From positions 72,267 to 136,266 of the forward strand of contig JBNPEG010000048.1 in assembly GCA_051117555.1 (NCBI GenBank): a stretch of DNA of 64,000 nucleotides. Reading direction: 5' to 3'. Source of the DNA: Elainellaceae cyanobacterium. GTDB taxonomy: Bacteria; Cyanobacteriota; Cyanobacteriia; CAZCXK01. This document shows positions 38,539-57,485 of this stretch, one piece after another. A program made the translations under genes and the position numbers. The notes under the pieces were generated by a model. The model did not search any database. It was not told where the DNA came from and was given only the letters and a program-made list of their open reading frames with translations. How positions within the stretch are numbered: position 1 is the stretch's first letter; each line of letters begins with the position of its first letter.

Positions 38539-39753
38539 CTATGTGGCCAGTCCCCACGTCCCGTTTAGACTAATTTCTTCACAAAATTGTCGAATCTCAT
38601 TCGTAGATGTTTCAAGCAGATTTTGGGCTTCAATAGTTAATGATTGATATCCTTCTGCGATTTCTTCTCCAAAGCCACCAGCTTCGAGATGGCGAATGAG
38701 AGATTGAATGATTGGTGTGGCGACGCTGATGCCAAAAAGGGCATTAAATCCTGCGACGACGACAGGTGCAGATAGCAAAATCGTTAATTCGGGAAATAAT
38801 GCTAAGACTGCTATCAAGATTAGGAAGAAGATGGGAGCCATAATTCCAGCACTAATAGCAGCTTCAAAGATGCGATCACGGTATTCATCAATTGAAATAT
38901 CCCCTCGGTACAGATCGAGAGAATAGGAGACTGCGGTGACGACAGCTTGAGTCAAAATAGCTGTGCCAGTCGCTGCAATACCGAGTTTGGCGATCGCTGC
39001 TGAGTTTTTGAGAATTGAATCAACTGCGTTGTAGACGCGGATATAGATCTGTTCTCCGCCTGTCATGGTGCGCGCACCACGACGAATATTATCAGCACCA
39101 ATTTCCCAGACAACATTATTGGCACCGTTGCCACCACCTTGAGAGTGAGGTTTAACATGACTTCCATGCTTGTCGGATAGAAATTCGCGAATGGTGCGCT
39201 CATTGGCTCCAAGTTTGGACGTCCCTGGAATCTTGTCAAATAGTCCCATCATGTCAGCACTGGAGCGAGGCGTATCATCTATACGAACGCCTGCTGTACG
39301 GAGACGAAGGGCAAGCTTGGGCATCTCTTTTGCTAATTCTTCGACCGTTCGAGGCAAATCTTTGAGTGAGTTGGCGATCGCCACTCCAGAGGCACTCATC
39401 CCAATAACATTTATTTGAGCATCTTCAATCGCTTTGCTGAGGGCATTTAAGCTATATTCAGTGGTTTGTTTCGACTGTTCTTTTAGGTGCTCGATGGTGG
39501 TAAATCCTGATGCTGTGACATCTGAGGTTGTGAGCTTGAGAGTGTCAACCGTCTGATTTACAGTATTAACGCCTTGCTGAATGGCATCATCAGAAGCCTC
39601 TTTGAAATTTTCAATCGCTGTCATTCCAGACGCAGCAATTGCAGCAGTTGTGTTCTTCGTATTTTCGACTGCATGATCGATCGTCTTGGCAGTTTCCTCA
39701 GCTTGTTGCGCAAGTGCCTCTGCCAACCATTTAGCGTGCTCTGAAAGATTCAT
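38539..39753 (-). CDS. Hypothetical protein with HNH-like motif and C-terminal TM helices
   Basis: Helical N-terminus, SHVKPHSQGG..ANN..E...N..RG, hydrophobic C-terminal helices; GGGAG RBS. Confidence 0.75.
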   Translation of the reverse strand: MNLSEHAKWLAEALAQQAEETAKTIDHAVENTKNTTAAIAASGMTAIENFKEASDDAIQQGVNTVNQTVDTLKLTTSDVTASGFTTIEHLKEQSKQTTEYSLNALSKAIEDAQINVIGMSASGVAIANSLKDLPRTVEELAKEMPKLALRLRTAGVRIDDTPRSSADMMGLFDKIPGTSKLGANERTIREFLSDKHGSHVKPHSQGGGNGANNVVWEIGADNIRRGARTMTGGEQIYIRVYNAVDSILKNSAAIAKLGIAATGTAILTQAVVTAVSYSLDLYRGDISIDEYRDRIFEAAISAGIMAPIFFLILIAVLALFPELTILLSAPVVVAGFNALFGISVATPIIQSLIRHLEAGGFGEEIAEGYQSLTIEAQNLLETSTNEIRQFCEEISLNGTWGLAT

Positions 39754-40148: not shown

Positions 40149-40234
40149 TGTGCACTCTGGGACTTGAAACTAGTGAACAGAACGGTAGATCGACTGAGTT
40201 GAATATCGGAGAGCGATCGCCATCCAAGACACGA

Positions 40235-40507
40235 AATCGTCAATGTGGCACATCACAATTTTAAAGTGCCATATGCAAACGTCGTTGCGAGTCGTGTAAA
40301 CGTCAATGTGGCACATACAAACGTCAATGTGGCACATGCAAACGTCGTTACGAGTCCTGCAAACGTCAATGTGGCACATACAAACGTCAATGTGGCACAT
40401 GCAAACGTCGTTATGAGTCCTGCAAACGTTAATGTGGCACATACAAACGTCAATGTGGCACATGCAAACGTCGTTGCGAGAGCTGCAAACATTAATGTGA
40501 CCCAGGA
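40235..40507. repeat. 21-bp tandem array (13 units) with 63-bp higher-order period
   Basis: Units AAACGTCAATGTGGCACATrC x2 alternating with AAACGTCGTTryGAGTCCTGC. Confidence 0.95.
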
Positions 40508-40581
40508 ACATTTCAACTGGGTTCAGAGATTACTTCACGGTGTTCGCAATGACTTTATGCTAATTGACTGCTTGCAACTTT

Positions 40582-42734: not shown

Positions 42735-44105
42735 ATGCGGCGATCGCTTGCCCGACTCAGAGCATTGAGTGCATTCAGAGCGCTGCCCGCCTCTGATTTA
42801 GGGCACTCTCTTGCGAAAGGCGCCGGAATTGCTCTGCTTGCACAAGTTTTAGGAGTCGGTATCGGCTATGGGACTCAGCTTTTGCTAACTCGGTGGATGG
42901 GCGCTAGCGGCTACGGAGCATACGACTTTTCTATTACATTAGGGAATTTTCTTGCCTTTCTAGCCGGATTTGGATTACCCAAAGTGCTGTTGCGGTTCAT
43001 TCCGGTATATATCATCACGCAAGACTGGAACCGCTTGCAGGGCATCATCTGGGGAAGCTGGTGGCAAACCTGCATCAATGGATTATTGCTTGCCGCTGTG
43101 GGTACGGTGTGTGTACACTGGCTCGATGCTCAAATTGGCGTTTCCTATGCCGTCTTGATCATCGCAGGACTATGGACGGTGCCCCTACAAGCTCTGATGA
43201 ATTTGCATGTTGAAATGAGTCGGGGGATTGAGCGCATCGGGCTCGCCTATATGCCGTGGTTAGTGGCGTGGCCGCTTTTGCTGCTCGTGGGGGCGATCGC
43301 CTGGCGGCAAACCGGGCAGGTTTTAACGGGTATCTCAGCGATCGCGCTTTCGATGGGAGCATTGGCGATCGCCATCGGTATTCAGCTCTGGCGGTTTCGC
43401 CACCACGTCTCGACTCAACTTCGCAGCGTTTCCCCAACTTTTGATATTCGTCTATGGTTGATGACGGCATTGCCCCTAATCTTCATCGATGGTTCGTCTG
43501 TGATTTTGAACCAAACCGATATCCTCATGCTGGGGTCATTATCAGGCACCCAAGCCGTCGGAATCTACAGTGCAGCGCTGAAAACAGCAAGCTGGGTGAG
43601 CGTAGTCCTGGTTGCAGTCAATGCGATCGCGGCTCCTAATTTTGCCAAGCTGTATGCCCAAGGCGATCGGCAGATGTTGCAGAAAGTTGTTTCGACCGTT
43701 GCGTATTGGATTTTTATTCCAGCCTTCATCCTGACCCTCGGACTGATCGTCTTTGCGGTGCCGATTTTGCAATGGTTTGGAGACGAGTTTGAAGTCGCAC
43801 GCTGGTCGCTGATCGCGTTGGCAATCGGGCAGTTAGTTAATGTAGGGTCTGGCTCAGTGGGCTATTTGATGATGATGACGGGGCACCAAAATCAAATGGC
43901 GCAAGTGTTTGCAGCAAGCGCTGTCGTGAATTTGGTGCTGAATGCGATCGCCATTCCCCACATCGGTATCTTGGGAGCATCATTAGCGACGGCCTTTTCA
44001 ATGTCGCTATGGAACCTCTGGCTATATGCTCTGGTGGTAAAACACGTTGGGGTTCGTCCTTCAATCTGGGCAGCATTGCGACGCCGTGCAAATCTGTCAA
44101 CGTAG
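42735..44105 (+). CDS. Oligosaccharide flippase (Wzx/MOP family)
   Basis: Multi-TM; LTRWMGASGYG, TDILMLG..AVGIYSAA, LNAIAIPHIGILGASLAT. Confidence 0.88.
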   Translation: MRRSLARLRALSAFRALPASDLGHSLAKGAGIALLAQVLGVGIGYGTQLLLTRWMGASGYGAYDFSITLGNFLAFLAGFGLPKVLLRFIPVYIITQDWNRLQGIIWGSWWQTCINGLLLAAVGTVCVHWLDAQIGVSYAVLIIAGLWTVPLQALMNLHVEMSRGIERIGLAYMPWLVAWPLLLLVGAIAWRQTGQVLTGISAIALSMGALAIAIGIQLWRFRHHVSTQLRSVSPTFDIRLWLMTALPLIFIDGSSVILNQTDILMLGSLSGTQAVGIYSAALKTASWVSVVLVAVNAIAAPNFAKLYAQGDRQMLQKVVSTVAYWIFIPAFILTLGLIVFAVPILQWFGDEFEVARWSLIALAIGQLVNVGSGSVGYLMMMTGHQNQMAQVFAASAVVNLVLNAIAIPHIGILGASLATAFSMSLWNLWLYALVVKHVGVRPSIWAALRRRANLST

Positions 44106-44291
44106 CAGACAAACGACGTATAGCCCTACCGTCTTAGATTTGTGGCTTAGAACGCAGCGAGGGGATTCTACCCACGTTCAACGTCCTAATATTACAGCGC
44201 AAGGTCGTGTATCACTGCTGCTGGATAGCTTCAGATCAGGGTAAAAAGAGCTAACCATTACCAAAACAGCGGACGTTTCATACCCATAGTG

Positions 44292-44370
44292 TGAGCGTCT
44301 CGATCACCGCGGGCAAGATGCCTTTCACTGGATGAGCGTCTCGATCACCGCGGGCAAGATGCCCGCACTG
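44292..44370. repeat. 41-bp tandem REP-like duplication
   Basis: TGAGCGTCTCGATCACCGCGGGCAAGATGCC x2; same hairpin as inside the 18069 MITE. Confidence 0.8.
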
Positions 44371-44765
44371 TCAATGATTGGCTTATTTCTGTCCAGTCAA
44401 GCGTAAATATACGCAAAACCCGGATGCGCTCAATCAGATTTGCATCAGATTTGCATATATTCACGCTTGACAAAATCATCAATTAAATTTTCTTGAAACC
44501 GCGATTAAGCGTGGTTGAAAATGTTGAACTATACTCTTAAAAATGTGCTTTATTTGTATAGCAACAGGTCATTTTCTAGGCGTTAATTTTTTTGCAAATA
44601 GCTCTCTATTTGTGCATAATTTGATTGGGCATTTGATATTAAAATTTGCTCTGAAAATAGATTTTCAGCCCTGGAATGCTGAGGCTTCAGCATAAACGGG
44701 TGGTATTAAATTGAAATATTTGTGGTGCTAATTTATCGAGTCTCGAATCGAGATGAAAAAGTCAT

Positions 44766-47700
44766 ATGTCAATTTTCTCCACTCTTGCAAAGTGCAGCGA
44801 TATCTGCATTCACGAATGGTTTGAGGTCAACGCCGCCGAGACTCCCGATGCGATCGCCCTTGTCTTTGAAAACACCCATCTGACTTATCAAGAGCTCAAT
44901 CAGCGTGCAAATTGTCTAGCTCACTATTTACGCCGATTAAATGTTGGTCCAGACGTATTAGTTGGTTTGCATTTTGAGCGATCGCTCGAAATGATGATCG
45001 GGTTACTTGCCATCTTTAAAGCTGGGGGTGCCTATGTGCCCTTTGACCCTGCTTATCCTGACGAACGATTAGCGCTGATGCTGAGTGATTCTCAGATTTC
45101 TGTCATGCTCAGCCAGCAGCATCCTGCATCGTGGTTTTCGACGTGTTCTATCCCCGTAGTTTGTTTAGAAACTGATTGGGACACTATTATTCAGGAACCT
45201 GCCCAAAATCCTGAACCACTGGCAACACCTGATAATCTGGCGTATGTCATTTACACATCGGGTTCAACCGGAACGCCCAAAGGCGTGATGATTGAACATG
45301 CATCATTAGTCAATTTTGTGCGAGATGCGGGTGATGCGTATGGTATTGTGGCGAGCGATCGCATCCTGCAATTCTCATCCATTAATTTTGATCAAGCGAC
45401 AGAAGAAATCTTCATCACCCTCGCGCGGGGGGCGACGCTTGTACTGCGTACCCCCGACATGATGCATTCGGTTCCTTCATTTTTCAAGGCGTGCGATGAC
45501 TTTGAGCTAACGGTTTTAGATCTTCCTACTGCTTTCTGGCACAAACTCTGTGGTGGACTCTCAACAGCCCGCTTTCCAGAAACGGTGCGGCTAATGCTCA
45601 TTGGAGGGGAACGGGCGCTACCTCGATGGTTCAATATCTGGAAGACCTATGTGAGCCCAGAGGTGAAACTAATTAATACCTATGGCCCGACCGAATCAAC
45701 TATCGTTGCCACCTGGTGCAATTTAGTTGGAGAAAACGCCGTTCACATTGATAACGATGTGATTCCCATCGGAAAACCGCTCCCAAATGTTCAAACCTAT
45801 GTTCTTGATGTGGACATGCAACCGGTTCGAGTGGGTGAAATAGGTGAGCTCTACATCGGGGGGACAGGGCTGGCACGCGGCTATCTCAATCGTCCTCAAT
45901 TGACGGCAGAACGGTTTGTGTATGTCAGCATCAATGGCAACTCTCCCGTTCGAGTCTACAAGACAGGCGATTTAGTGCAATATCGCCCAGATGGTCATTT
46001 AGAATTCCTTGATCGGAGCGATCGCCAAGAAAAAATTCGCGGTTTTCGCGTCGAGTTGCGAGAAATTGAAACCGTGCTTGCTCAACATACTGCGGTGCAA
46101 CAAGCCGTTGTCGTGGCTAGAGATGATGCCTCAGGAGACAAACATCTCATTGCCTATGTCATCCAAGATTTGCATGATAGGAAACACCTAGATGGCGCTA
46201 ATCGCTCTCAACTCGAAGCAGAACAAATCAACCAATGGCGGTTCATTCACAATGACGACCATTTGAATCCTGCTAAATCAGGATGGGATAACACATTTAA
46301 TATCAGCGGATGGGTTAGTACCTATACAAATTCTCTCATTCCTGACCGTGAGATGCATGAGTGGGTTGATAACACGGTCGAGCGAATTCTGGCACTTCAG
46401 CCCCGACAGGTTTTAGAAATTGGCTGTGGTACAGGTCTACTTCTCTTTCGCATTGCGCCGTTCTGCACCCACTATGTAGGCACTGATTTCTCAGAGGCTG
46501 CGTTGAAGTATATCAACCAGCAGCTCAACCAGTCTTCGATAAACCTGCCCCAGGTCGTCCTTGAAAAACGAATTGCAGATAACTTTGAAGGACTAACCCC
46601 TCAATCATTTGATACCCTCATCATCAACTCGGTTATTCAATATTTTCCAAGTATTGACTATCTCCTCAGCGTCATTAAACAGGCCGTCGAGGTTGTGAAA
46701 CCCGGAGGCATGATCTTTATTGGAGATATTCGCAACTATGCATTGCAAGAAGTATTTGCTGCCTCAGTCGAGATGTTTCAGGCACCGAGTGACCTGCCAA
46801 TCGATGCCCTTTGCGATCGCATCCAAAAAAGGCTCGATTTGGAAGGTGAACTCACGGTAGATCCTCAATTTTTTACGGCCCTTCAACATCATCTACCTCA
46901 AATCACCCACGTCCAAGTGGTGTTGAAGCGTGGGACGTTTGAGAATGAACTGACTCAGTTTCGATATGATGCCATCTTGCACATTAGTTCTGAATCAACC
47001 ACGCTGGTCGAATATCCTTCGTTGGATTGGCAACAGCAACGATTCACGGTTACAGCATTACGTCAACGCTTGGTGGACACGTGCCCATTAGTCTTAAGCA
47101 TTCACAATGTCCCGAATGCAAGAGTCCTGCCTGCGGTTAGAGCATTGCAATTGCTCAACCAGTCTCCCCGCCCAACCACAGTAGAAGAATTGCGGCAAGC
47201 TCACGCACAGATCGATCAGTCCGAGGGTGTAGACCCAGAAGAGGTGTGGAAACTCTCTCAAGATTTGCCCTACGACATGACCGTAAACTGGTTAAAAGGG
47301 GCAGCCGATGGGCATTACGATATTTTGCTCAAACGGCGATCGCCCACTTCTGAGCCTAGCCCGTTACCCATCGAATTAGTTCACCCCTACACTGTTCGCT
47401 TACACGAGTCTTGGCAATCCTATGCCAATAATCCACTCAAAGAAAAAGCAGCACACCAGCTTTCTCGACAGCTTCGTTCCTATTTGCAGCAGCGGCTACC
47501 TGACTACATGGTGCCTTCGGCATTCGTGGCGATCGCCTCTCTGCCACTCACCCCAAACGGCAAAGTCGATATAAAAGCTCTGCCTTCACCAAGCAATATT
47601 CGACCCAGATTAGATGGCAGAGTTGTCCCACCAAACACTCCACTAGAGCGAGAACTTGCAGTTATTTGGTCAACTGTTTTAGACATTGAAGAGATTGGAA

Positions 47701-49085
47701 TTACGGATGATTTTTTTGAGTTGGGGGGCAACTCGCTTCGCCTAATGGATCTCATGTCTCAAGTTGAGCAGACCTGTCAAATCGCACTATCCCTCGATGA
47801 GTTCTTTAAGGCGCCTACGATCAGCGGTCTGGCTCAGCAGATTCAGCAAACCGATGCTCTTACTAGTTCTGCCCTGCACAACCGAGTAACGGTGCAAGAG
47901 CTACTCGTCGAAGCAACTCTCGATTTCACAATCAATACTCCGGTTGCCGATCAAACCCGCTGGACTCATCCCCAGTCAATTCTCCTCACGGGAGCAACAG
48001 GCTTTATTGGGATGTCTATCCTTTTCGAACTCTTAAATAAGACAGACGCAACGATTTACTGTCTGATTCGTGCTCAAAACCTGACGGACGCGTATCAAAA
48101 GCTCCGCCAAATTTCTACAAAATACCAACTTGATTCAACCCAGTTCTATCCTCGCATTGTTCCCGTTATTGGCAATCTCACCCAACCTCTACTCGGATTA
48201 TCCAGAGACAAGTTTCAAGCATTAGCAGCCACCGTTGATGTGATTTATCACGGTGCCGCTAACGTCAACCTGGTTCTTCCCTATGCGGCTCTAAAGGCCG
48301 TTAATGTTGTGGGAACAAAATCTATCTTGTCATTTGCGAACCATGTCAAACTCAAACCCGTCCATTTCATGTCGACATTAGATGTCTTTGAGGCACGAAT
48401 GGCAATGAGTAACACGACTATTTTTGAACATGATGCGATCGCCCCCACCGCCTCGATTGCGCGAGACTATCAAATCACTGGGGGCTATGCTCAAAGCAAA
48501 TGGGTTGCCGAACAGCTCGTCTCCCAGGCAGGACAGGCGGGGTTGCCAGTTTGCATTTATCGACTGGGAATGATTAGCGGCAACCAACACACCGGAATTT
48601 GCAATGTAGGAGATTTGTTATGTCGATTGCTCAAAAGTTTTATTGAACTCAAGGCGGCTCCCCAAATTGACTTGAATCTTGATATGACTCCAGTTGATTA
48701 CGTCAGCCAGGCGACCGTTCATTTGTCTCGACAGCTCACATCGTTTGGTCAATCCTTTCATCTCGTTAATCCGACCCCCGTCCCACTCGACCAAATCCTT
48801 CAACAAATGAATAATTTGGGCTATGCTATCAAGCGGGTGCCCTATGAGCGATGGGAAGTCATGATTCAGGAGACTCGCAATGCACTTGGCCCCTTAGCCA
48901 CTACGATAACCGACCCAATCCAAGAGCATCAGATCAGTCGATTAGAGGGCTGGCTCGCAGGGAGCCAACTATTCGATTGTCAGCAGACGCTCTCGGCGCT
49001 AAATGGCAGTAGAATCATATGCCCTACCGTTGATAATGCTTTGTTGCATAAGTATATTTCCAATATCGTCGGAACCTATGCCTAA
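44766..49085 (+). CDS. Monomodular NRPS-like enzyme: adenylation, embedded methyltransferase, PCP, thioester reductase
   Basis: YVIYTSGSTGTPKG, NTYGPTE, GELYIGG.GLARGY, YKTGD; MT VLEIGCGTG; PLTPNGKVD; PCP FFELGGNSL; R TGATGFIG, GYAQSKWVAE; no C domain. Confidence 0.93.
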   Translation: MSIFSTLAKCSDICIHEWFEVNAAETPDAIALVFENTHLTYQELNQRANCLAHYLRRLNVGPDVLVGLHFERSLEMMIGLLAIFKAGGAYVPFDPAYPDERLALMLSDSQISVMLSQQHPASWFSTCSIPVVCLETDWDTIIQEPAQNPEPLATPDNLAYVIYTSGSTGTPKGVMIEHASLVNFVRDAGDAYGIVASDRILQFSSINFDQATEEIFITLARGATLVLRTPDMMHSVPSFFKACDDFELTVLDLPTAFWHKLCGGLSTARFPETVRLMLIGGERALPRWFNIWKTYVSPEVKLINTYGPTESTIVATWCNLVGENAVHIDNDVIPIGKPLPNVQTYVLDVDMQPVRVGEIGELYIGGTGLARGYLNRPQLTAERFVYVSINGNSPVRVYKTGDLVQYRPDGHLEFLDRSDRQEKIRGFRVELREIETVLAQHTAVQQAVVVARDDASGDKHLIAYVIQDLHDRKHLDGANRSQLEAEQINQWRFIHNDDHLNPAKSGWDNTFNISGWVSTYTNSLIPDREMHEWVDNTVERILALQPRQVLEIGCGTGLLLFRIAPFCTHYVGTDFSEAALKYINQQLNQSSINLPQVVLEKRIADNFEGLTPQSFDTLIINSVIQYFPSIDYLLSVIKQAVEVVKPGGMIFIGDIRNYALQEVFAASVEMFQAPSDLPIDALCDRIQKRLDLEGELTVDPQFFTALQHHLPQITHVQVVLKRGTFENELTQFRYDAILHISSESTTLVEYPSLDWQQQRFTVTALRQRLVDTCPLVLSIHNVPNARVLPAVRALQLLNQSPRPTTVEELRQAHAQIDQSEGVDPEEVWKLSQDLPYDMTVNWLKGAADGHYDILLKRRSPTSEPSPLPIELVHPYTVRLHESWQSYANNPLKEKAAHQLSRQLRSYLQQRLPDYMVPSAFVAIASLPLTPNGKVDIKALPSPSNIRPRLDGRVVPPNTPLERELAVIWSTVLDIEEIGITDDFFELGGNSLRLMDLMSQVEQTCQIALSLDEFFKAPTISGLAQQIQQTDALTSSALHNRVTVQELLVEATLDFTINTPVADQTRWTHPQSILLTGATGFIGMSILFELLNKTDATIYCLIRAQNLTDAYQKLRQISTKYQLDSTQFYPRIVPVIGNLTQPLLGLSRDKFQALAATVDVIYHGAANVNLVLPYAALKAVNVVGTKSILSFANHVKLKPVHFMSTLDVFEARMAMSNTTIFEHDAIAPTASIARDYQITGGYAQSKWVAEQLVSQAGQAGLPVCIYRLGMISGNQHTGICNVGDLLCRLLKSFIELKAAPQIDLNLDMTPVDYVSQATVHLSRQLTSFGQSFHLVNPTPVPLDQILQQMNNLGYAIKRVPYERWEVMIQETRNALGPLATTITDPIQEHQISRLEGWLAGSQLFDCQQTLSALNGSRIICPTVDNALLHKYISNIVGTYA

Positions 49086-49235
49086 GATTGGATGGTGCTG
49101 ATATGTCTAATCATTGTTAACAATGTTCTCGGTCGGGGCATCTTGTGTACAAGACCATGAATTTTTCTCTGTTCCATATACTTTAAGGAACAAAAGTTAT
49201 CTCAGCCCCACCGTCTTGATTCAAAGTCCCAAGCG

Positions 49236-52097
49236 ATGATGATCCCTAGAAGTAAACGCCATCCGCATTCTAAAGGAATTCCCTTAAGCTTTGTCTTGGT
49301 CGTGCCATTTGTGTTACAGATTTTTGCCACGGTAGGAATCGTAGGCTATTTGTCCTTTAAAAATGGACAAGAAGCGGTCAATCGCCTAGCCATGCGCCTC
49401 AGTTCTGAAGTGGGCGATCGCGTCGAGCAACATCTTGATAATTATCTAGAACTTCCTCATAAGCTGGCCCAAATCGATGTAGATGCTCTAGAAAACGGAA
49501 TACTCGACATCCGCAACTTTCAAACCAATGGACGCTATTTCTGGAAGCAAGCAAGCATCTACAAAAACATTGCCTTTGTGGGCTACTATCTCGAAACCGG
49601 AGAAGGAGTTGCGGCTCAACGCTGGCCCCCTGAATCTGGCGTTTCTATCGTTGAACATTCGCTAGTCACTGGCAAAGATTATAACTACGCAACTGACTCT
49701 CAGGGCAATCGAACCACGCTAATAGATGCAACCGAATATTACGCGCCAGAAGATGATTGGTATATCGATGCCGTCAAGGCAGGCAGACAAACTTGGAGCA
49801 GTATCTATACCGCAGATGGGTTTGAGGGCTATGTCGCGGCTTCCGCAGTTCGTCCCATTTATAGTCAGGACAACAAATTGCTGGGTGCTCTTAGCGTCGA
49901 TTTGCTTCTCAGTGATATTAGTGACTTCCTCTATACGTTAGATATTAGCCCAAACGGAAAGGTCTTTATCATTGAGCGAGATGGGTTACTCATTGGCAAT
50001 TCGAGTCTCAATGCAACGTACGATATTGTTAATGGCGAAACTCAGAGGCTTACGGCTCTAAATAGCTCTGACAGCTACATTCGAGCAACTGCACAGTATC
50101 TAGAGCAGCAGTTTGGTGGTTTTGAGGCAATCGAAACCCAGCAGATTTTAGAATTCTCTCTCAATAACGAGCGGCAATTCGTTCAGGTTTCTCCTTGGCA
50201 AGATGAATACGGGCTAGATTGGCTAGTCATTGTCACCATTCCTGAATCTGATTTCATGGCTCAGATTAATGCAAATACCCAGACAACTATTCTTCTCTGC
50301 GTGGGGGCATTGTTCATCGCAACCGGATTAGGAATCCTAACAGCCCGCCGGATTACCCGCCCCGTCTCTACTCTGAGTCGGGCAAGTCAGGCAATTGCGA
50401 GCGGTGATTTAAACCAAAACCTTCAAGAAAAGGGCATTCGAGAACTGCGCATTTTGTCTCAATCATTTAATCGAATGGCGCAGCAGCTCAGAGATTCCTT
50501 CGATCACTTAGAAAATCGAGTCGTGCAGCGCACCTCTGAACTTGCCGAAGCAACACAAGTAGCAGAGAAGGCTAAGGAAGCGGCACTGGTTGCCAACCAA
50601 GCCAAAAGTGAATTTTTAGCGAATATGAGTCATGAGCTGAGAACTCCTCTCAGTGGAATTTTGGGGTATGCCCAAATTCTCCAGCGTTCAACGAGCCTGA
50701 GTGAACAGGAGTTACGAGGAATCACCACTATTCAAAACTGTGGCGCTCATTTACTAACACTAATCAATGATGTTCTCGACCTTTCCAAAATCGAAGCCAG
50801 GAAAATGGAGCTCTATCCGACTGATTTCCATTTTCCGTCTTTCCTGGAAGGAATCGCTGATATTTTTCGACTTCGCGCGATCGAAAAAAATATTCAGTTT
50901 ATATTTAGCCCTTCACCCGATCTACCGATGGGGATTTATGCTGATGAAAAGCGATTACGGCAAGTCTTGATCAATCTCCTAGGTAATGCAATAAAGTTCA
51001 CAGAGGGGGGTAAGGTCCACTTTAGGGTTGAGGTTATTCAGAAGTATCCAACGGGCGATCGCATAAAAGAAAATCATTCAGAACTAAATAATTCATTTGA
51101 CCGATCACCCCAAATCTTCAAAATTCGTTTCCAAGTTGAAGACACTGGCATCGGAATGAATCCCGAACAACTTGAGAAAATTTTCTTGCCATTCGAACAG
51201 GTTGGCACTGATAGACATAGTGCCGAAGGAACTGGGCTAGGATTAGCGATTAGTCAAAAAATCGCTCAATCGATGGAAAGTAAAATCCAAGTGAAAAGCC
51301 AGCCAGGAAAGGGAAGCATATTTTGGATGGAGATAAGCTTACCCGAAGCTGCCGATTGGATGCAATTCAATGCTATAAAAGAACCCAATAAAATAATCAA
51401 ATATCACGGCGAGCAGCGACGGATTCTTGTAGTCGATGACAATAAAGAAAATCGTCAGGTTATCAGTGAGTTGCTAACATCAACTGGGTTTAGGGTAGAG
51501 GAAGCAGTTGATGGCAAAGAAGGTTTAGAGGTGATGTCATCATTTCACCCTGACTTACTGATTCTAGATCTGGCAATGCCGAATATCAATGGCTTTGACA
51601 TGATGCAAATATTACGCAAGTCAGAGGAATTTAAAGATATACCGATCTTAATTTCTTCCGCACATGTTTCTCCTCAAGATCAGCTAAAAAGTCATCAGTG
51701 GGGGGCGACTGATTTTCTTCCCAAACCGGTACAGTCAGACGAGCTTTTCCAGAAGTTACAACACTATCTAAATTTAGAATGGATTTATGAAACCACATCG
51801 CCTAATAGTGGCGATGCACTAAATGAGCAGTTTAATTGCGCGTCGGTCTTTAATACAGGTATCGGCTTTCAACACGCCAATGATTGCAACTTTAATATGA
51901 TTATCCCGTCGGATGATGTGATCGAATATCTATATAACTTGGCAAAGATGGGAAATCTAAATAGAATCCTTGAGCAAACAGAGAAATTAGAAACTACAGA
52001 CAAAAAATTTAGCTCCTTTGCTGTTCAGTTGCGTCGTTTTGCAGAAGAATTTCAAGAAAAAGAGCTATTAGAGTTTATCAGCCAATACCGACGGTAA
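49236..52097 (+). CDS. Hybrid sensor histidine kinase (dCache-HAMP-HisKA-HATPase-REC)
   Basis: 2 TMs, [36 protein letters not shown]. Confidence 0.93.
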
Positions 52098-52103
52098 ACA
52101 ATC

Positions 52104-53417
52104 GTGGATTTTCAACCCCAAAAATCAAACACGCTTCTGGTTGTCGATGATAATCCCGATAACTTAAGAGTCCTTTCTCAATTTTTAGGTCAGTCAGATT
52201 ATGAAGTTCTAGTTGCACGAGATGGGGAAACTGCCATTCGACGAGCGGAATATGCGTCTCCTCAGTTAATCTTATTAGACGTCATGATGTCGGGCATTGA
52301 TGGGTTTGAAACGTGTCGTCGGCTCAAGTCAAATCCGGCAACTCAACATATTCCGGTTATTTTTGTGACGGCTCTTTCTGAAACGGTAGATCGAGTTAAG
52401 GGGCTGTCGTTAGGAGCAGTTGATTTTATTACTAAGCCTTTCCAGCATGATGAGATTTTAGCAAGGATTCATGTACATTTAAGGCTTCGTCAATTAAATC
52501 ATGCCCTCGAAGAAAAAAATTCTCTTTTGCAAAATGAAATCATCAAGCGTGCCAAAGCTCAGGCTTCGCTTAGGCAAGCACTTGAAGATCTTAAATATGC
52601 TCAGGCGCAGATTGTTCAGAGCGAGAAAATGTCGAGCTTAGGTCGAATGGTAGCTGGAATCGCCCATGAAATTAATAATCCAGTTCACGTGGTTCAGGGT
52701 AATCTTTTCCATATCAATTCATATGTCCACAACTTGCTAGACCTGCTGCATCTTTATAAAAAGATGTGTTCGTCACCTGAAATTGAGGAAAAGGCGAAAA
52801 GTATTGATCTGGACTTTATCTTGGAAGATCTACCTCAAGTATTTAGATCAATGGAAATAGCAGGACAACGGATCACCGATATTGTTCAGAATTTGAAGAG
52901 GTTCTCTCATTTAGACCAATCTGAAAAGAAGCTTGCAAATCTCCATAGTGGGTTAGATGATACATTATTTCTGCTAAGAAGCCGCTTGAAATCTTATGAT
53001 ACCCGCCGCGAGATTCAGGTGATTAAAGAATATGGTGCGCTGCCGGATATTGAGTGTTATCCAGGGCTACTCAATCAAGTGTTTATGAACATTCTCGATA
53101 ATGCTATTAGTGCACTAAGAACACAGGAGAATAAAACAGGTCATAAAGATAGCTTATTTTATCCCCAGATTAGGATTCGAACCGATGTTCAAGAGGGATG
53201 GGTAATTATTCGAATTCGTGACAACGGCACTGGAATCAACTCAGATATTCAATCGAAGCTGTTTGATCCCTTCTTTACTACGAAGCCTGTCGGAGAAGGA
53301 ACAGGACTTGGACTATCAGTGAGCTATCAGATCATCGTCGAAAAGCACCAAGGACAATTAAAATGTCACTCTTTTCCGGATGAAGGGACAGAATTTGTCA
53401 TTGAAATTCCGATGTGA
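52104..53417 (+). CDS. Hybrid REC-histidine kinase
   Basis: N-terminal REC (VDD, LDVMM, KP), AHEINNP, DPFFTTKPVGEGTGLGL; 6 bp after the upstream kinase. Confidence 0.92.
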   Translation: MDFQPQKSNTLLVVDDNPDNLRVLSQFLGQSDYEVLVARDGETAIRRAEYASPQLILLDVMMSGIDGFETCRRLKSNPATQHIPVIFVTALSETVDRVKGLSLGAVDFITKPFQHDEILARIHVHLRLRQLNHALEEKNSLLQNEIIKRAKAQASLRQALEDLKYAQAQIVQSEKMSSLGRMVAGIAHEINNPVHVVQGNLFHINSYVHNLLDLLHLYKKMCSSPEIEEKAKSIDLDFILEDLPQVFRSMEIAGQRITDIVQNLKRFSHLDQSEKKLANLHSGLDDTLFLLRSRLKSYDTRREIQVIKEYGALPDIECYPGLLNQVFMNILDNAISALRTQENKTGHKDSLFYPQIRIRTDVQEGWVIIRIRDNGTGINSDIQSKLFDPFFTTKPVGEGTGLGLSVSYQIIVEKHQGQLKCHSFPDEGTEFVIEIPM

Positions 53418-53568
53418 TGGTGTCCAGTCATCAAGACGATGTATCTCGTATTCCTAAATTATATGAAACATCGTTCCTTTTTTAATTTCCCTCTTTGAAA
53501 TTAATTGTTTTCCAATGGATGTAGTGTGAGTAGTATTAATCAAGTCGTTAGTCTCTCTCAACCGACGT

Positions 53569-54144
53569 ATGCCAAATCGTAGATGTGTGGTCAGAACTGG
53601 CGGTAGTTTAATCATTCTTGTAGGGCTGTCGCTGATGGGGTGTCAGTCGAGCGATCGCCCCGAGGTGCAGTTATCGGAATCGGTGAAATCCATGAATTTA
53701 GAGAGCGCTGCGTTTTCTCAGGAGGAAATGATTCCCCCCAAATATACCTGCGATGGCCAAGACATATCTCCGCCGTTGAGTTGGGATACACCGCCCGACG
53801 GAACTGAAAGTCTAGCTCTGATTGCCGATGATCCAGATGCCCCGTCGGGTACGTTTGTGCATTGGGTACTCTACAATATGTCGCCTGATGTTCAACAACT
53901 GCCAGAAGGTGCAACCGATTCAATAGGTTCGACGGGCGGAGTTCAGGGCAAGAGCGATTTCGGTAAGCAGGGGTATGGAGGACCCTGCCCACCCGGAGGG
54001 ACTCACCGCTATTTCTTTAAGCTTTATGCGCTTGATACCAAGCTAGACCTGGAACCCGGCGCAACGAAAGCCGATGTTGTTGAGGCAATGGAAGGTCATA
54101 TTTTGGCAAATGCAGAATTAATGGCTCGCTATAGCCGTCAGTGA
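53569..54144 (+). CDS. YbhB/YbcL family (PEBP/Raf kinase inhibitor-like) protein
   Basis: YTCDG.DISPPL, DDPDAP, HWV, YGGPCPP, HRYFF. Confidence 0.92.
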   Translation: MPNRRCVVRTGGSLIILVGLSLMGCQSSDRPEVQLSESVKSMNLESAAFSQEEMIPPKYTCDGQDISPPLSWDTPPDGTESLALIADDPDAPSGTFVHWVLYNMSPDVQQLPEGATDSIGSTGGVQGKSDFGKQGYGGPCPPGGTHRYFFKLYALDTKLDLEPGATKADVVEAMEGHILANAELMARYSRQ

Positions 54145-54197
54145 TTCATCAGTGATTCCGATGGCATGATAGAGGCTAGTTTAATGAGCCTGCTCCG

Positions 54198-55385
54198 ATG
54201 CATAAATTTATTTGGTTAGTTTCAGGTCAGACGATTTCGTTGCGCCGGTGGATCGCGGGTGGCGCGATCGCCCTGTGGGTCTTTTTATCAGGATGCTCTC
54301 TGCCTCGGGTGAGTGCAGAAGAGAGAATTTTTCTGACTGTGTCGCTGGATTTTTTAGACGCCTACGAACTGCCTAACGTCGAGTTTGAAGACACTCCCGT
54401 TCGGGGACTTTCGGGTATTACTTACGACCGAGCGCGCGATCGCATCTATGCGGTGTCAGATGATCGGGGCGATCGCGCGCCTGCTCGGTTTTATACGCTA
54501 ACGTTCACAGTCGGTCAAACAGAGGATAATCGTCCGTGTATCGACGGAGTTGAGGTGGAAACCGTCACCTTTCTGCTCAACGAAATGGGGGACACCTTTG
54601 CACCTGGCACAGTCGATCCAGAAGGCATCGCAGTGTCACCTCGGCAATCTGTGTTTATTTCTAGCGAAGGCGTCGCTGATGATGGGATTCCACCGTTTAT
54701 TGACGAATTTGATCTAGAAACCGGGCAATGGAAAAGTCGATTGCCCGTTCCGGAGCGCTATCTTCCCCGCACCGTAGATGACCAAGCTCAAGGGGTGAGA
54801 GATAACCGAGGCTTCGAAGCCTTGACTCTAAAAGCAGCAGGGTTTCGATCGGGTGAGCCGTTTCGGGTGTTTTCTGCGATTGAAGAACCCCTCCAACAAG
54901 ATCCGCTTCCAGAGGAGGATGGGCAGTCGTCTCCGGGGCGAATCCTGCATTACGTCGTTGGAGACGAGCGATCGCTCTTGATTGCAGAACATTTATATCC
55001 GATTGACCCAGAGCCTCCCGGTGCCGTCATCAATGGGCTAGTCGAACTGGTTGCCCTTGACCTAGGCGGGCATTTTTTGAGTCTAGAGCGATCGTTTGGC
55101 ATCTTTGGCAATGGAGCCCGCATCTTTCAGCTCGCCATGGGGGGAGCCACTGACACCTCTGGAATGACCCAATTTGGAACAAACCTAGGCCGCATTCAAC
55201 CCGTTCAAAAACGACTATTGCTTGATCTCACTGATTTGGATATTTCCCTTGATAATCTAGAAGGGATGACCCTCGGCCCTCGCCTTCCTGACGGAACACA
55301 AAGTGTGGTGCTGGTGAGTGACGATAATTTTAACGAAACACAAGTGACTCAGTTTTTGTTGTTCAGACTTCAGGGTGTACAGTAG
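54198..55385 (+). CDS. Esterase-like activity of phytase family protein
   Basis: Lipobox, GLSGITYD, VSDD, DPEGI, N.GFEAL, DNLEG, VSDDNF. Confidence 0.88.
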   Translation: MHKFIWLVSGQTISLRRWIAGGAIALWVFLSGCSLPRVSAEERIFLTVSLDFLDAYELPNVEFEDTPVRGLSGITYDRARDRIYAVSDDRGDRAPARFYTLTFTVGQTEDNRPCIDGVEVETVTFLLNEMGDTFAPGTVDPEGIAVSPRQSVFISSEGVADDGIPPFIDEFDLETGQWKSRLPVPERYLPRTVDDQAQGVRDNRGFEALTLKAAGFRSGEPFRVFSAIEEPLQQDPLPEEDGQSSPGRILHYVVGDERSLLIAEHLYPIDPEPPGAVINGLVELVALDLGGHFLSLERSFGIFGNGARIFQLAMGGATDTSGMTQFGTNLGRIQPVQKRLLLDLTDLDISLDNLEGMTLGPRLPDGTQSVVLVSDDNFNETQVTQFLLFRLQGVQ

Positions 55386-55604
55386 AACACCTGTCTGGGA
55401 CTTGTCCCGGCCTGAAACGTTCCTTGTTATGATAAATCCTTGTTGATCGGATTAATTATTTAATGCTTTGCATCATTCAGAGCCCGGAGAGTCGCATTTG
55501 AGCGGCTGTTTTGATTAGTGATTTAACTAATCGGGAGTCGGGTGAGGGATGGGTGTTCAATAACAATTTGGCTTTAAACTGGCTTTCAATAGGCGTTATC
55601 TCTT

Positions 55605-57485
55605 ATGCAACCTCCTATTTCTCTCGGAGCTGTTCTGCAAAATCGCTATCGTGTCCTGAGTATCTTAGGTCAGGGCGGATTTGGGCGAACGTATCTCGCT
55701 GAAGATCAGGGGCGTTTTAACGAACTGTGTGCGCTAAAAGAATTCATTCCCAGTCAGACTAGCGATTTTGCGATTGAGAAATCGAGAGAACTGTTTCAAC
55801 GAGAAGCAGCTATTTTATATCAAATCCAACATCCGCAGGTTCCTCAGTTTCGAGCGACTTTTGAAGAAGATCAGCGACTATTTCTTGTCCAAGATTATGT
55901 CGAGGGCAAAACATACCGAGATTTGCTGAATGAACGGCAGCTTCACGGCATGGCATTTAATCAAGCAGAAGTCATCCAACTGATTCGTCAACTGCTACCC
56001 GTGCTTGCCCATATCCACAGCAAAGGCATTATTCATCGAGATATTACACCTGACAATATTATTCTTAGACAGCGCGATCAGCTTCCCGTTTTGATTGATT
56101 TTGGCGTCGTCAAAGATATTGCCAAGATTGTGACTCAGGTTCAAAGTTCGACGGCTCGTCAGTCAACCACGGTGGGAAAGTTGGGGTATGCGCCCAGTGA
56201 GCAAATGCAAACCGGACGAGCCTATCCCAGCAGTGATTTTTATGCGCTGGCAGTGACATCGGTGGTGCTGCTGACGGGGAAAGAGCCACAAGACCTCTAC
56301 GATGACTCTCTGCTTACGTGGCACTGGCAACAATGGGCACGGGTGAGTCCTGCGTTTGCACAGGTGCTCAATCGCATGCTGAGCTATCGCCCTGGCGATC
56401 GCTACCAAACTGCCAGTGAGGTAGAGCAAGCCCTGCAACAGATCACTCATGCACCAATGCCGCCTCCAGCGACTCAGACTCAGCCCCACGGCAGCGATAC
56501 CGTGTCTCGAATGCAAACCATCGCCGTGGGGCGACGACCCGAGCCAACCGGATATAGCGGCTATGCTCCTCCGCCTAGCCGTCCTCAGCGCGCGGGGCCA
56601 ACGATTCCGCGTCCCAATGAGCAATCTGTGTGGGATAACCCGTGGGCTGTGTTCGCGATTGGCACTGGATTGGCGATCGTGACGGGGGTAACAGCCTGGG
56701 CAATTATCACAGCTATTTTGGATGCGCCTCCTGAGACTCCCATTGCTAGCCCAACTCCATCGCCGACTGAAGCGACCCCCTCACCCACCCCGACGAGGGG
56801 CGATCGCCCCGTTGAATATCAGCAGCAGTTGAATCTTGCGCCTGGTAGCAGCACGACGACCGAAGGCAATTTGCAAGCTGGAGAAACGATTAACTATATA
56901 ATCGCCGCTGAGGAAGGAGAAACGCTTAGCGCCTATGTCGAAAGCGAGGGAGTTTTGTTGACGGTGCTAGCTCCCGATGGGGAGCCTGTGGATAATCGAG
57001 CTGAACGCGTTTCGCTGTGGGAAGGCACCGTGTCTGCTACAGGCGACTACACAGTTCAACTGAGCCCAGTCCGGGGGTTATCCCAAAGTGACTACCAATT
57101 AAATGTAGCGCTAGAGCCTGCCCCAGAACCGTCTCCGTCTCCAACGCCGTCACCAAGCCCCACACCCGTTGAGCCAGAAATCGAAACTCGACGGCTAAAT
57201 GTTCCGGTTGGAGAGTCGCCGATTGAAGTGTCAGGCAGAGCTAGCGGAGACCTCATTCGCCGTTACTTGATCACAGCTCAAGAAGATCAGGTTCTGAGTG
57301 TTGAATTATTAGAAGGTCCTGTGAGTTTAAATATTCGCTATCCTGACGGAGACTTGATTGAAGATGCCAGTCGAGTCGTATTTTGGCAGGCTCAGTTGCC
57401 GGAGAGTGGTGATTATCAAGTTGATGTGATCGCAACTCAACCGTCTAACTTTACGCTAGAAGTTAGCGTTGAAAATGTGGAGTAA
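55605..57485 (+). CDS. Transmembrane Ser/Thr protein kinase with two C-terminal PPC-like domains
   Basis: GQGGFG, HRDITPDN, DFG; TM; Pro/Ser linkers; repeated Y...A..G..LS/GDY.V domains. Confidence 0.9.
   Translation: MQPPISLGAVLQNRYRVLSILGQGGFGRTYLAEDQGRFNELCALKEFIPSQTSDFAIEKSRELFQREAAILYQIQHPQVPQFRATFEEDQRLFLVQDYVEGKTYRDLLNERQLHGMAFNQAEVIQLIRQLLPVLAHIHSKGIIHRDITPDNIILRQRDQLPVLIDFGVVKDIAKIVTQVQSSTARQSTTVGKLGYAPSEQMQTGRAYPSSDFYALAVTSVVLLTGKEPQDLYDDSLLTWHWQQWARVSPAFAQVLNRMLSYRPGDRYQTASEVEQALQQITHAPMPPPATQTQPHGSDTVSRMQTIAVGRRPEPTGYSGYAPPPSRPQRAGPTIPRPNEQSVWDNPWAVFAIGTGLAIVTGVTAWAIITAILDAPPETPIASPTPSPTEATPSPTPTRGDRPVEYQQQLNLAPGSSTTTEGNLQAGETINYIIAAEEGETLSAYVESEGVLLTVLAPDGEPVDNRAERVSLWEGTVSATGDYTVQLSPVRGLSQSDYQLNVALEPAPEPSPSPTPSPSPTPVEPEIETRRLNVPVGESPIEVSGRASGDLIRRYLITAQEDQVLSVELLEGPVSLNIRYPDGDLIEDASRVVFWQAQLPESGDYQVDVIATQPSNFTLEVSVENVE

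Follow-up and report, generated by a model that had tools for sequence, protein, structure and literature searches.

A conserved cyanobacterial gene module linking a stand-alone A-(N-MT)-T-R enzyme to a Cache/REC-kinase pair, a possible small-amine signalling system

Organization of the locus

The window analysed, a 64,000-nucleotide (nt) stretch from the genome of a soil cyanobacterium (Elainellaceae; all coordinates are positions within it), contains three co-directional open reading frames (ORFs), which encode a stand-alone enzyme resembling a non-ribosomal peptide synthetase (NRPS), a hybrid sensor kinase with a Cache domain and a second kinase carrying a receiver (REC) domain. The three genes are best explained as the minimal form of a conserved cyanobacterial module, in which a small-amine synthase is combined with a dedicated two-kinase sensor. 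Their coordinates are exactly those given in the original prediction, with 150 nt between the enzyme and the Cache kinase and 6 nt between the Cache kinase and the REC-kinase (Table 1).

Table 1. Features of the enzyme-kinase locus. Positions refer to the window, residues to the encoded protein (aa, amino acids; MT, methyltransferase).
Feature	Position	Strand	Details and evidence
Stand-alone NRPS-like enzyme, A-(N-MT)-T-R	44766..49085	+	1439 aa; ORF call, Pfam, NCBIfam, motifs, orthologues
Adenylation domain, N-terminal part before the interruption	44820..46193	+	residues 19-476; PF00501, PF13193, TIGR01733
Methyltransferase inserted in the A domain	46203..47465	+	approximately residues 480-900; Pfam MT families, 5wmm match
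Thiolation (carrier) domain	47652..47840	+	residues 963-1025; PF00550, GGNS at 987
Terminal thioester reductase domain	47979..49073	+	residues 1072-1436; TIGR01746, MxaA 4u7w match
150-nt gap between enzyme and kinase	49086..49235	.	site of accessory genes in relatives
Hybrid sensor kinase, dCache_1-HAMP-HisKA-HATPase-REC	49236..52097	+	953 aa; Pfam, AlphaFold2 model, fold, clade
Sensor (dCache_1) domain	49356..50279	+	HMMER alignment to PctA 5ltx; residue table over 28 sensors
REC-HisKA-HATPase kinase	52104..53417	+	437 aa, GTG start; Pfam, sequence

The first gene product had been described as a condensation-less protein, made up of an adenylation (A) domain with an embedded MT, a carrier (T) domain and a terminal reductase (R) domain, and Pfam and NCBIfam searches recovered all of these. 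Pfam matches comprise AMP-binding (residues 19-374), a truncated AMP-binding_C (433-476, covering profile positions 1-47 of 76 of PF13193), a methyltransferase (550-650), PP-binding (963-1025) and NAD_binding_4 (1074-1316). The A domain was also detected by TIGR01733 (residues 40-449, 436 bits versus a cut-off of 317) and the R domain by TIGR01746 (322 bits versus 213), the best solved relative of the latter being MxaA (4u7w, E 4.2e-83). The catalytic motifs are intact: LEIGCGTG, for S-adenosylmethionine, at 550, GGNS, with the phosphopantetheine serine of the carrier domain, at 987, TGATGFIG at 1075 and YAQSK at 1241. A phosphopantetheinyl transferase gene (PF01648) is found elsewhere in the same genome. 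No Condensation domain (PF00668) was detected, either among the 15 families matched by the enzyme or in the 12 neighboring proteins scanned. With an A10 lysine, a carrier serine and a reductase of the short-chain dehydrogenase/reductase (SDR) type, and lacking a condensation domain, the protein has the make-up of a stand-alone NRPS-like A-T-R enzyme.

Pfam MT families match residues 522-665, between the truncated AMP-binding_C and the A10 lysine (K933), so that the MT separates the body of the A domain from its A10 motif, as in an interrupted A domain. The best solved relative of the 430-aa insert is 5wmm (E 1.7e-50, over insert residues 14-319); this entry, itself named just 'NRPS', we take to be the N-methylating interrupted A domain of TioS (A4a-M4-A4b). 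An embedded MT in this format had been considered unusual, which does not hold within cyanobacteria: A-MT-T-R proteins of stand-alone length and with the same domain set make up 103 of the 120 best-scoring database clusters. Among the genera represented in the 120 clusters are Leptolyngbya, Leptothoe, Merismopedia, Nostoc, Scytonema, Calothrix and Chroococcidiopsis, named strains being included, and the annotation is generic throughout; on the evidence of these clusters the module is widespread. The best NCBIfam match of the whole enzyme, A domain included, is MxcG, at 805 bits versus an equivalog cut-off of 2300. Two other identities were rejected, namely a Lys2-type alpha-aminoadipate reductase (TIGR03443, 481 bits versus a cut-off of 1030), a family to which an embedded MT is foreign, and a carboxylic acid reductase, whose score is far under the cut-off.

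Pfam likewise bore out the predicted nature of the two kinases. The 953-aa protein is a dCache_1 hybrid histidine kinase, with a double-Cache domain between transmembrane (TM) segments, a kinase core and a receiver, in the order TM1, extracytoplasmic dCache_1 (approximately 41-348), TM2, HAMP (368-420), HisKA (456-521), HATPase (570-703) and REC (730-841). In its AlphaFold2 model (predicted local distance difference test, pLDDT, 87) the sensor consists of a long N-terminal helix and two PAS-like modules, and Foldseek searches with the sensor model matched dCache ligand-binding domains with E values down to 1.6e-13. The REC-kinase matches REC, HisKA (partial) and HATPase_c, and both the context of the receiver Asp (LLDVMM) and the H-box (AHEINNP) are present.

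GC content and frequency of the highly iterated palindrome HIP1 were compared between the kinase pair, the enzyme gene and the flanks. As had been noticed, the kinase pair is richer in AT and poorer in HIP1 than its surroundings, with a GC content of 0.426 and 2 HIP1 sites in 4182 nt (0.48/kb), versus 0.477 and 1.85/kb in the enzyme gene, and 0.485-0.508 and about 1.96/kb in the flanks. Orthologous kinases and an accessory methyltransferase gene of the NNMT type in two related loci (G002 and L025; G and L numbers denote genomes and loci) follow the same AT-rich trend. Since the contrast recurs in orthologous loci, it is a trait of these genes and not a peculiarity of the window.

Conserved linkage of enzyme and kinases

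Thirteen genomes were found to encode a stand-alone A-MT-T-R enzyme with a lysine-like specificity code (see below): the window genome, G002, G003, G425, G426 and eight more from the order of G425. A fourteenth orthologue, in G001, lies on a contig of 2857 nt and was left out of the linkage count. In the genome-sample searches just 2-3 NRPS candidates per genome were scored, and copies may have been missed. The orthologues in G002, G003 and G425/G426 share 85%, 70% and 52% identity, respectively, with the window enzyme.

Conserved linkage had been set beforehand as the test of the original prediction. The orthologous Cache kinase is the next kinase downstream of the enzyme in 11 of the 13 genomes (window, G002, G425, G426, G473, G456, G461, G458, G465, G459 and G470), after 0, 1 or 2 accessory genes; these genomes are related to one another, so that the counts are not independent events. 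Where the sequence continues, in 9 of the linked loci, the REC-kinase comes next in 8, the next ORF of G470 being unrelated; the other two contigs end before it. Flanking genes are unrelated between the lineages of linked loci. Both exceptions were inspected. In G003, no member of the sensor orthogroup is present anywhere in the genome (best sensor match 267 bits). In G475 the module is split between L124 and L129: the enzyme gene is 3'-truncated (a 1396-aa ORF matching residues 1-1330), and the NNMT-like gene, the Cache kinase and the REC-kinase lie together on a different contig.

Co-occurrence follows the same pattern. Of 173 genomes of the order of G425, 10 contain the enzyme (E<=1e-250), and precisely these 10 contain the sensor orthogroup (E<=1e-110), which is found in 0 of the other 163. 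In a tree of sensor domains the 11 linked sensors form one clade (SH-aLRT, the approximate likelihood ratio support, 100), separate from 18 unlinked paralogues, i.e. the 17 nearest ones and one more distant paralogue from the window's own genome. Compared with the window sensor, three linked relatives score 510-627 bits, the best unlinked paralogues at most 401. The sensor type belongs to a large cyanobacterial paralogue family: of 401 genomes sampled, 125 contain it, some with as many as about 25 first-look candidates. Six of the nearest unlinked kinases were examined, and they are followed by a REC-kinase or by a REC-GGDEF-EAL protein, none of them adjoining such an enzyme. Just 3 proteins of the window's own genome have this sensor type, and the adjacency recurs in distant genomes with different flanks; it is thus more than chance. 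The linkage being so strongly conserved, we hold with high confidence that the module is real and conserved, and functional coupling of the enzyme and the kinases is well supported by the genomic comparison. A metagenome scan based on a 5-sequence enzyme alignment, in which one of the two patterns used was a generic NRPS motif, found no family member beside a sensor, NNMT or SET gene in 75 loci and was uninformative.

Two further observations concern the evolution of these cassettes. The nearest unlinked paralogue of the kinase pair, in G191 (L098:4174-6920), lies divergently beside a terpene synthase and a cytochrome P450, and may represent another small-molecule pathway beside such a kinase cassette. 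In G465 (L123) the enzyme is sister to that of G456 (L120) with an SH-aLRT of 100, and the sensor groups with those of G459 and G470; the different groupings, together with a missing NNMT-like gene, suggest recombination within the module.

Substrate code and predicted product

The ten specificity-code positions of the A domain were read off the alignment from conserved anchors, with D209 and K933 occupying code positions 235 and 517. The resulting code is DQEDIGTIVK in the window enzyme, and D[AQHT]EDIG[TAG][VI][VI]K describes all 13 lysine-type orthologues. Acidic residues at code positions 239 and 278 indicate a pocket suited to a basic side chain. We read codes of this type as probable lysine codes; text searches for the code found nothing. 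Lysine is favoured because MxcG is the best NCBIfam match and because SET proteins, which have a lysine methyltransferase fold, and HalD-family proteins are encoded next to several orthologues.

By its similarity to 5wmm, and by known N-MT motifs, the embedded MT is predicted to methylate the alpha-nitrogen. The original prediction of a small N-methylated amine fits what was found, namely a 5wmm-like MT, an MxaA-like R domain, a code for a basic side chain and accompanying or fused amine and lysine methyltransferases; the product itself we infer. A lysine-derived N-methyl amino alcohol or aldehyde is the likely product: Nα-methyl-lysinal is predicted, which would probably be reduced to Nα-methyl-lysinol and, in relatives, N-methylated further.

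Accessory genes between enzyme and kinase

In relatives, the gap between enzyme and Cache kinase is the site of accessory genes. A methyltransferase gene of the NNMT/PNMT/TEMT family is present in 8 of the 13 lysine-type genomes, a family rare in the phylum (3 of 401 genomes), and in the split module of G475 it still travels with the kinases. In two of the 13 (G459 and G470), a HalD-family protein and a SET-domain protein are encoded between enzyme and kinase, and in G003 a SET gene alone lies beside the enzyme. The window and G465 have no accessory gene in the gap: alignment with G002 revealed no alignable remnant of one in the 150 nt of the window, and neither the NNMT family nor SET was found in the window's own genome, which is 100% complete. 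The original prediction had noted that other NRPS, polyketide synthase (PKS) or tailoring genes are missing nearby. For the window this stands, since Pfam and NCBIfam scans found none near the module; the relatives carry tailoring genes at the gap, and their lack is therefore particular to the window genome and G465 and not a feature of the module.

In one protein cluster (P0006, 1586 aa, 55% identity) a SET domain (PF00856) forms part of the same polypeptide as the A-MT-T-R enzyme. Such a Rosetta-stone fusion ties the enzyme to the SET methyltransferase which adjoins it in G003, G459 and G470. The HalD-like genes lie between the enzyme and the SET gene at L125:7846-8580 and L126:5192-5959 (G459 and G470). 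Enzymes of the HalD/BesD family use free lysine and ornithine as substrates (PMC10041140). When the L125 protein was aligned to Halogenase D (7u6h, HMMER), Gln and Gln/Arg were found at the two iron-binding histidine positions; with both histidines replaced, it may not be an active halogenase, and may instead be an inactive lysine-binding homologue or carry out other chemistry.

The sensor pocket

The sensor domain was compared with PctA, whose residues Y121, R126, W128, Y129, Y144 and D173 correspond to Y169, D173, W175, Y176, Y191 and D222 of the window sensor (HMMER, 5ltx). In PctA, R126 binds the carboxylate of the ligand; its role and those of the other motif residues are taken from PMC10589655. 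The Arg which defines the dCache_1AA family of universal amino-acid sensors at this position is replaced by Asp173 in the window sensor. In all 11 linked sensors the R126 position holds Asp, and the positions of W128, Y129, Y144 and D173 are kept. At the Y121 position 10 of the 11 have Tyr and one Phe, an aromatic residue being present in just 1 of 17 unlinked sensors. The residues common to the dCache_1AA and dCache_1AM motifs are thus kept; the full AM_motif is set out in a figure of PMC10589655. To judge from these residues, the pocket looks like an amino-acid site lacking the place for the carboxylate, and such a pocket would suit a reduced amino acid. Naming a ligand class from the fold search was tried and dropped, as receptors for amino acids, amines, purines and other ligands all appear among the matches.

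A sister enzyme clade with a second Cache sensor

A sister clade of the enzyme family (SH-aLRT 100) includes the proteins of G193, G420, G044, G556 and G209. We read the codes of G193, G556, G420 and G044 as probable glycine codes and that of G209 as a probable alanine code. Downstream of each of the enzymes of G193, G209 and G556 lie a Cache hybrid kinase of another, divergent kind and one or two REC-kinases. In a sample of 396 genomes, the orthogroup of this second sensor (at least 431 bits) has three members, in G193, G209 and G219. The last of these genomes contains in a row (L217:5231-12627) a REC-kinase, an A-T-R enzyme without MT (1018 aa) and a Cache hybrid kinase of the second type; the code of the enzyme, DVQFTGHVVK, is presumably proline-like. 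In all, enzymes of the sister type (Gly, Ala and one Pro-like) are paired with the second Cache kinase in 4 genomes.

Reduction of N-methylglycine, N-methylalanine or proline yields in each case an amino alcohol with a secondary amine. The second sensor has 3li8/3lib, PacA and McpX among its best solved sequence relatives; of these, 3lib, PacA and McpX are counted as amine receptors in PMC10589655. Sensor type therefore varies with substrate class, and of the indirect arguments for sensing of the product this is the strongest.

In the two remaining genomes of the clade the glycine-code enzyme is found without kinases. In G420 (L061:8010-14163) the genes after it encode an APH/choline-kinase-like phosphotransferase and an EamA transporter, and insertion sequence elements lie upstream; in G044 (L064:5110-13699) it is followed by a free condensation-like domain, an SDR and a small multidrug resistance (SMR) pump, with a methyltransferase upstream. 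These contexts hint at a metabolism of the N-methylethanolamine type.

Interpretation and alternative explanations

In the proposed mechanism, the A domain would charge the carrier domain with L-lysine, or with a basic compound close to it, and the embedded MT would methylate the alpha-amine. The MxaA-like reductase would then release Nα-methyl-lysinal and probably reduce it further to Nα-methyl-lysinol; relatives would add further N-methyl groups by means of the NNMT-like or the SET enzyme, both missing from the window genome. The compound would reach the periplasm and bind to the membrane-distal dCache pocket, which appears to keep the residues binding the amino group and to have Asp in place of the carboxylate-binding Arg. 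Binding would alter the activity of the hybrid kinase, which would relay the signal, via the REC-kinase, to an unlinked output. We infer the binding of the ligand, its export and the output. That the Cache kinase senses the product of the enzyme is the best single reading of the genomic data, and one to which we would give about an even chance. The original interpretation, in which this sensing forms a quorum-sensing-like circuit, is partly supported.

Several points weigh against this reading. The lysine assignment of the code rests on recall plus context. In HMMER comparisons with solved structures, the window sensor best matches a purine receptor and receptors for amino acids rather than for amines, and the Foldseek matches do not discriminate ligand class. 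An acidic residue at the R126 position is also present in 12 of 17 unlinked paralogues; being common to the whole paralogue family, it is no specific mark of the linked kinases. The enzyme is found without the kinase in G003, G420 and G044, which indicates that its product has a use not needing this receptor. The sensors of the window and of G465, which have no accessory methyltransferase, are near those of relatives having it, so that either the extra methylation plays no part in recognition or product and sensor are loosely matched. Lastly, the module loci share neither a conserved exporter nor a conserved DNA-binding regulator.

The main rival, which we regard as possible rather than probable, is that the kinases are a dedicated pathway regulator, sensing some other periplasmic cue (such as an external amine, a diamine like cadaverine, the precursor or a stress signal) and switching the enzyme operon on or off; the N-methylated lysine derivative would then have a role outside signalling, for example that of an osmolyte, an allelochemical, a building block or a compound resembling polyamines. 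A cluster-situated regulator explains the conserved linkage and the co-occurrence equally well, and the contexts of the G420 and G044 enzymes are metabolic, not signalling. The distribution is also asymmetric, the enzyme occurring in three genomes without the kinase and the sensor orthogroup never having been found in an enzyme-free genome (in G475 the two lie at separate places), which fits a regulator dependent on its pathway. A cue unrelated to the product, on the other hand, would not lead one to expect that sensor type shifts with substrate class, and the linked sensors' amino-acid-like pocket, minus its carboxylate-binding Arg, suits a reduced amino acid. Moreover the kinases lie 3' of the biosynthetic genes, and the module includes no DNA-binding regulator.

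Rather improbable, in our judgement, is a role of the kinase in feedback or self-protection, in which it would monitor the cell's own reactive amino aldehyde or amine, at its periplasmic or external level, and limit synthesis or induce tolerance; there would be no cell-to-cell signalling, and density would not be measured. Alpha-amino aldehydes are indeed chemically reactive, no exporter is conserved in the module, and the genomic evidence is identical to that for the preferred explanation; genomic data cannot separate feedback from quorum sensing. Against feedback, no tolerance or efflux gene is conserved in the lysine-type loci.

That enzyme and kinases are functionally unrelated and co-inherited through adjacency alone is very improbable: the pairing of a Cache kinase with a REC-kinase is a common cyanobacterial cassette, found in many contexts (sensor type in 125 of 401 genomes), and its genes differ from the enzyme gene in GC and HIP1 content, but the adjacency holds at 52% enzyme identity with completely different flanks, co-occurrence in one order is 10/10 versus 0/163, the linked sensors are a single clade, the second enzyme clade has its own sensor type, and in G475 the methyltransferase remains with the kinases despite a truncated and displaced enzyme gene.

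If sensing of the product is preferred, as here, the placing of the kinases downstream of the synthase resembles the co-located signal cassettes agr and com. The genes are co-located and co-inherited, as a synthase and its receptor are in quorum-sensing cassettes. More tentatively, and with less confidence than for product sensing itself, it may be proposed that filamentous and other non-unicellular cyanobacteria own a family of amino-alcohol (or amino-aldehyde) autoinducers, each made by an A-(N-MT)-T-R synthase and read by a matched Cache/REC-kinase pair. Its members would be N-alkylated 2-amino alcohols derived from lysine, glycine, alanine or proline and optionally further methylated, with substrate and sensor diversifying jointly in the manner of pherotypes.

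Few cell-to-cell signals have been defined in cyanobacteria, and most Cache-domain sensors have no known ligand. The module is compact and conserved, and its enzyme allows the ligand class of the neighboring sensor to be predicted; the varied substrate codes and accessory methyltransferases provide a natural series for the divergence of signal and receptor. To judge from its genes, the set may be an undescribed chemical signalling system; a search of the literature, mostly excluding subscription journals, found no description of such an enzyme-kinase module, which is not proof of novelty. Should the amino-alcohol autoinducer proposal be true, it would reveal a new chemical language of communication between bacterial cells and the first dedicated synthase-receptor pair of its kind in cyanobacteria, and it would suggest a compound class for the unknown native autoinducer of the Vibrio receptor CqsR. 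Even if the kinases are merely pathway regulators, the enzyme family, with N-methyl amino alcohols from Lys or Gly and SET fusions, represents uncharacterised chemistry.

Flanking sequences

Upstream genes for a hisC-like and a MATE/flippase-like protein were tried as module members and rejected, as tblastn found no homologues in 19 other loci. Downstream, at 53569-57485, lie genes for a PEBP/YbhB-family protein, a phytase-like esterase and a Ser/Thr protein kinase, whose synteny is kept only in G002; they are outside the conserved module. Two further ORFs on the reverse strand, 38539-39753 (404 aa) and 40170-40511 (113 aa), have no Pfam or NCBIfam family. Across 43900-53700, no match at E<=1 was obtained to any Rfam RNA family, riboswitches included. 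In the gap at 49086..49235 a terminator scan found no terminator-like site, and promoter-like sites are no commoner than in shuffled sequences.

The 660-nt region 5' of the enzyme gene contains a perfect direct repeat of 31 nt (44292-44322 and 44333-44363, spacing 41 nt) and, slightly downstream, an inverted repeat of 22 nt (44396-44417 and 44450-44471). A string search revealed just two copies of the 22-nt core of the direct repeat genome-wide, and the repeat is absent from the other 218 loci searched, those of the relatives included. A conserved regulator site is therefore ruled out, the repeats being unique to their own genome; the direct repeat may have arisen as a local duplication, or may be bound by a regulator.

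Comparison with known systems

Co-located cassettes of a synthase and a sensor kinase are known in cqsA-cqsS (Vibrio, CAI-1), lqsA-lqsS (Legionella), agrBDCA and comQXPA. As in all of these, the signal-making gene or genes of the module, as predicted, adjoin the presumed detecting histidine kinase, and the set is inherited together. The enzymes and receptors themselves, however, are unrelated: CqsA is a pyridoxal phosphate (PLP) enzyme, CqsS senses within the membrane and agr and com use peptides, whereas the window encodes an NRPS-like A-MT-T-R enzyme and a periplasmic dCache domain as its putative receptor. The window module has no cognate DNA-binding response regulator.

PvfC of the Pseudomonas virulence factor (pvf) cluster has the A-T-R architecture and is, like the window enzyme, a stand-alone NRPS-like enzyme with reductive release; in contrast to it, PvfC is proteobacterial, has no embedded methyltransferase and works with other Pvf enzymes. 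The pvf cluster is not known to include a Cache kinase pair. The amino-acid-derived product of PvfC serves as a signal (PMC10194917). A tryptophanol synthase from a diatom is another stand-alone A-T-R enzyme reported to make a signal. MxaA-R, the terminal reductase of myxalamid synthesis, has been studied for the production of primary alcohols (Barajas 2015, cited in PMC8024701). MxcG (myxochelin) and MxaA (myxalamid) share the reductive release, but carry condensation domains or sit in assembly lines and have no embedded MT. As in TioS A4a-M4-A4b, the MT of the window enzyme interrupts the A domain towards its end, ahead of the A10 lysine; TioS differs in belonging to a multi-module NRPS without reductase release.

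With dCache_1AA and dCache_1AM sensors the window sensor shares the fold and the positions of PctA W128, Y129, Y144 and D173, differing from dCache_1AA in the Asp that replaces the carboxylate-binding Arg. With respect to dCache_1AM, amine receptors are the best solved relatives of the sister (Gly/Ala/Pro-type) sensors, not of the window sensor. A further point of comparison is CqsR of Vibrio cholerae, whose Cache domain (PDB 9NIA and others) binds the 2-amino alcohols ethanolamine, L-alaninol and serinol, an Asp being essential for binding the amine and hydroxyl of the ligand; its native autoinducer is unknown and no adjacent synthase is described in the accessible part of the report (PMC12410723). 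No similarity in sequence between CqsR and the window sensor was detected (it is not among the 15 matches at E<=1), nor is CqsR among the Foldseek matches listed. Like the window kinase, it is a hybrid histidine kinase with a periplasmic Cache domain, and its ligand class is the class to be expected from an A-T-R enzyme.

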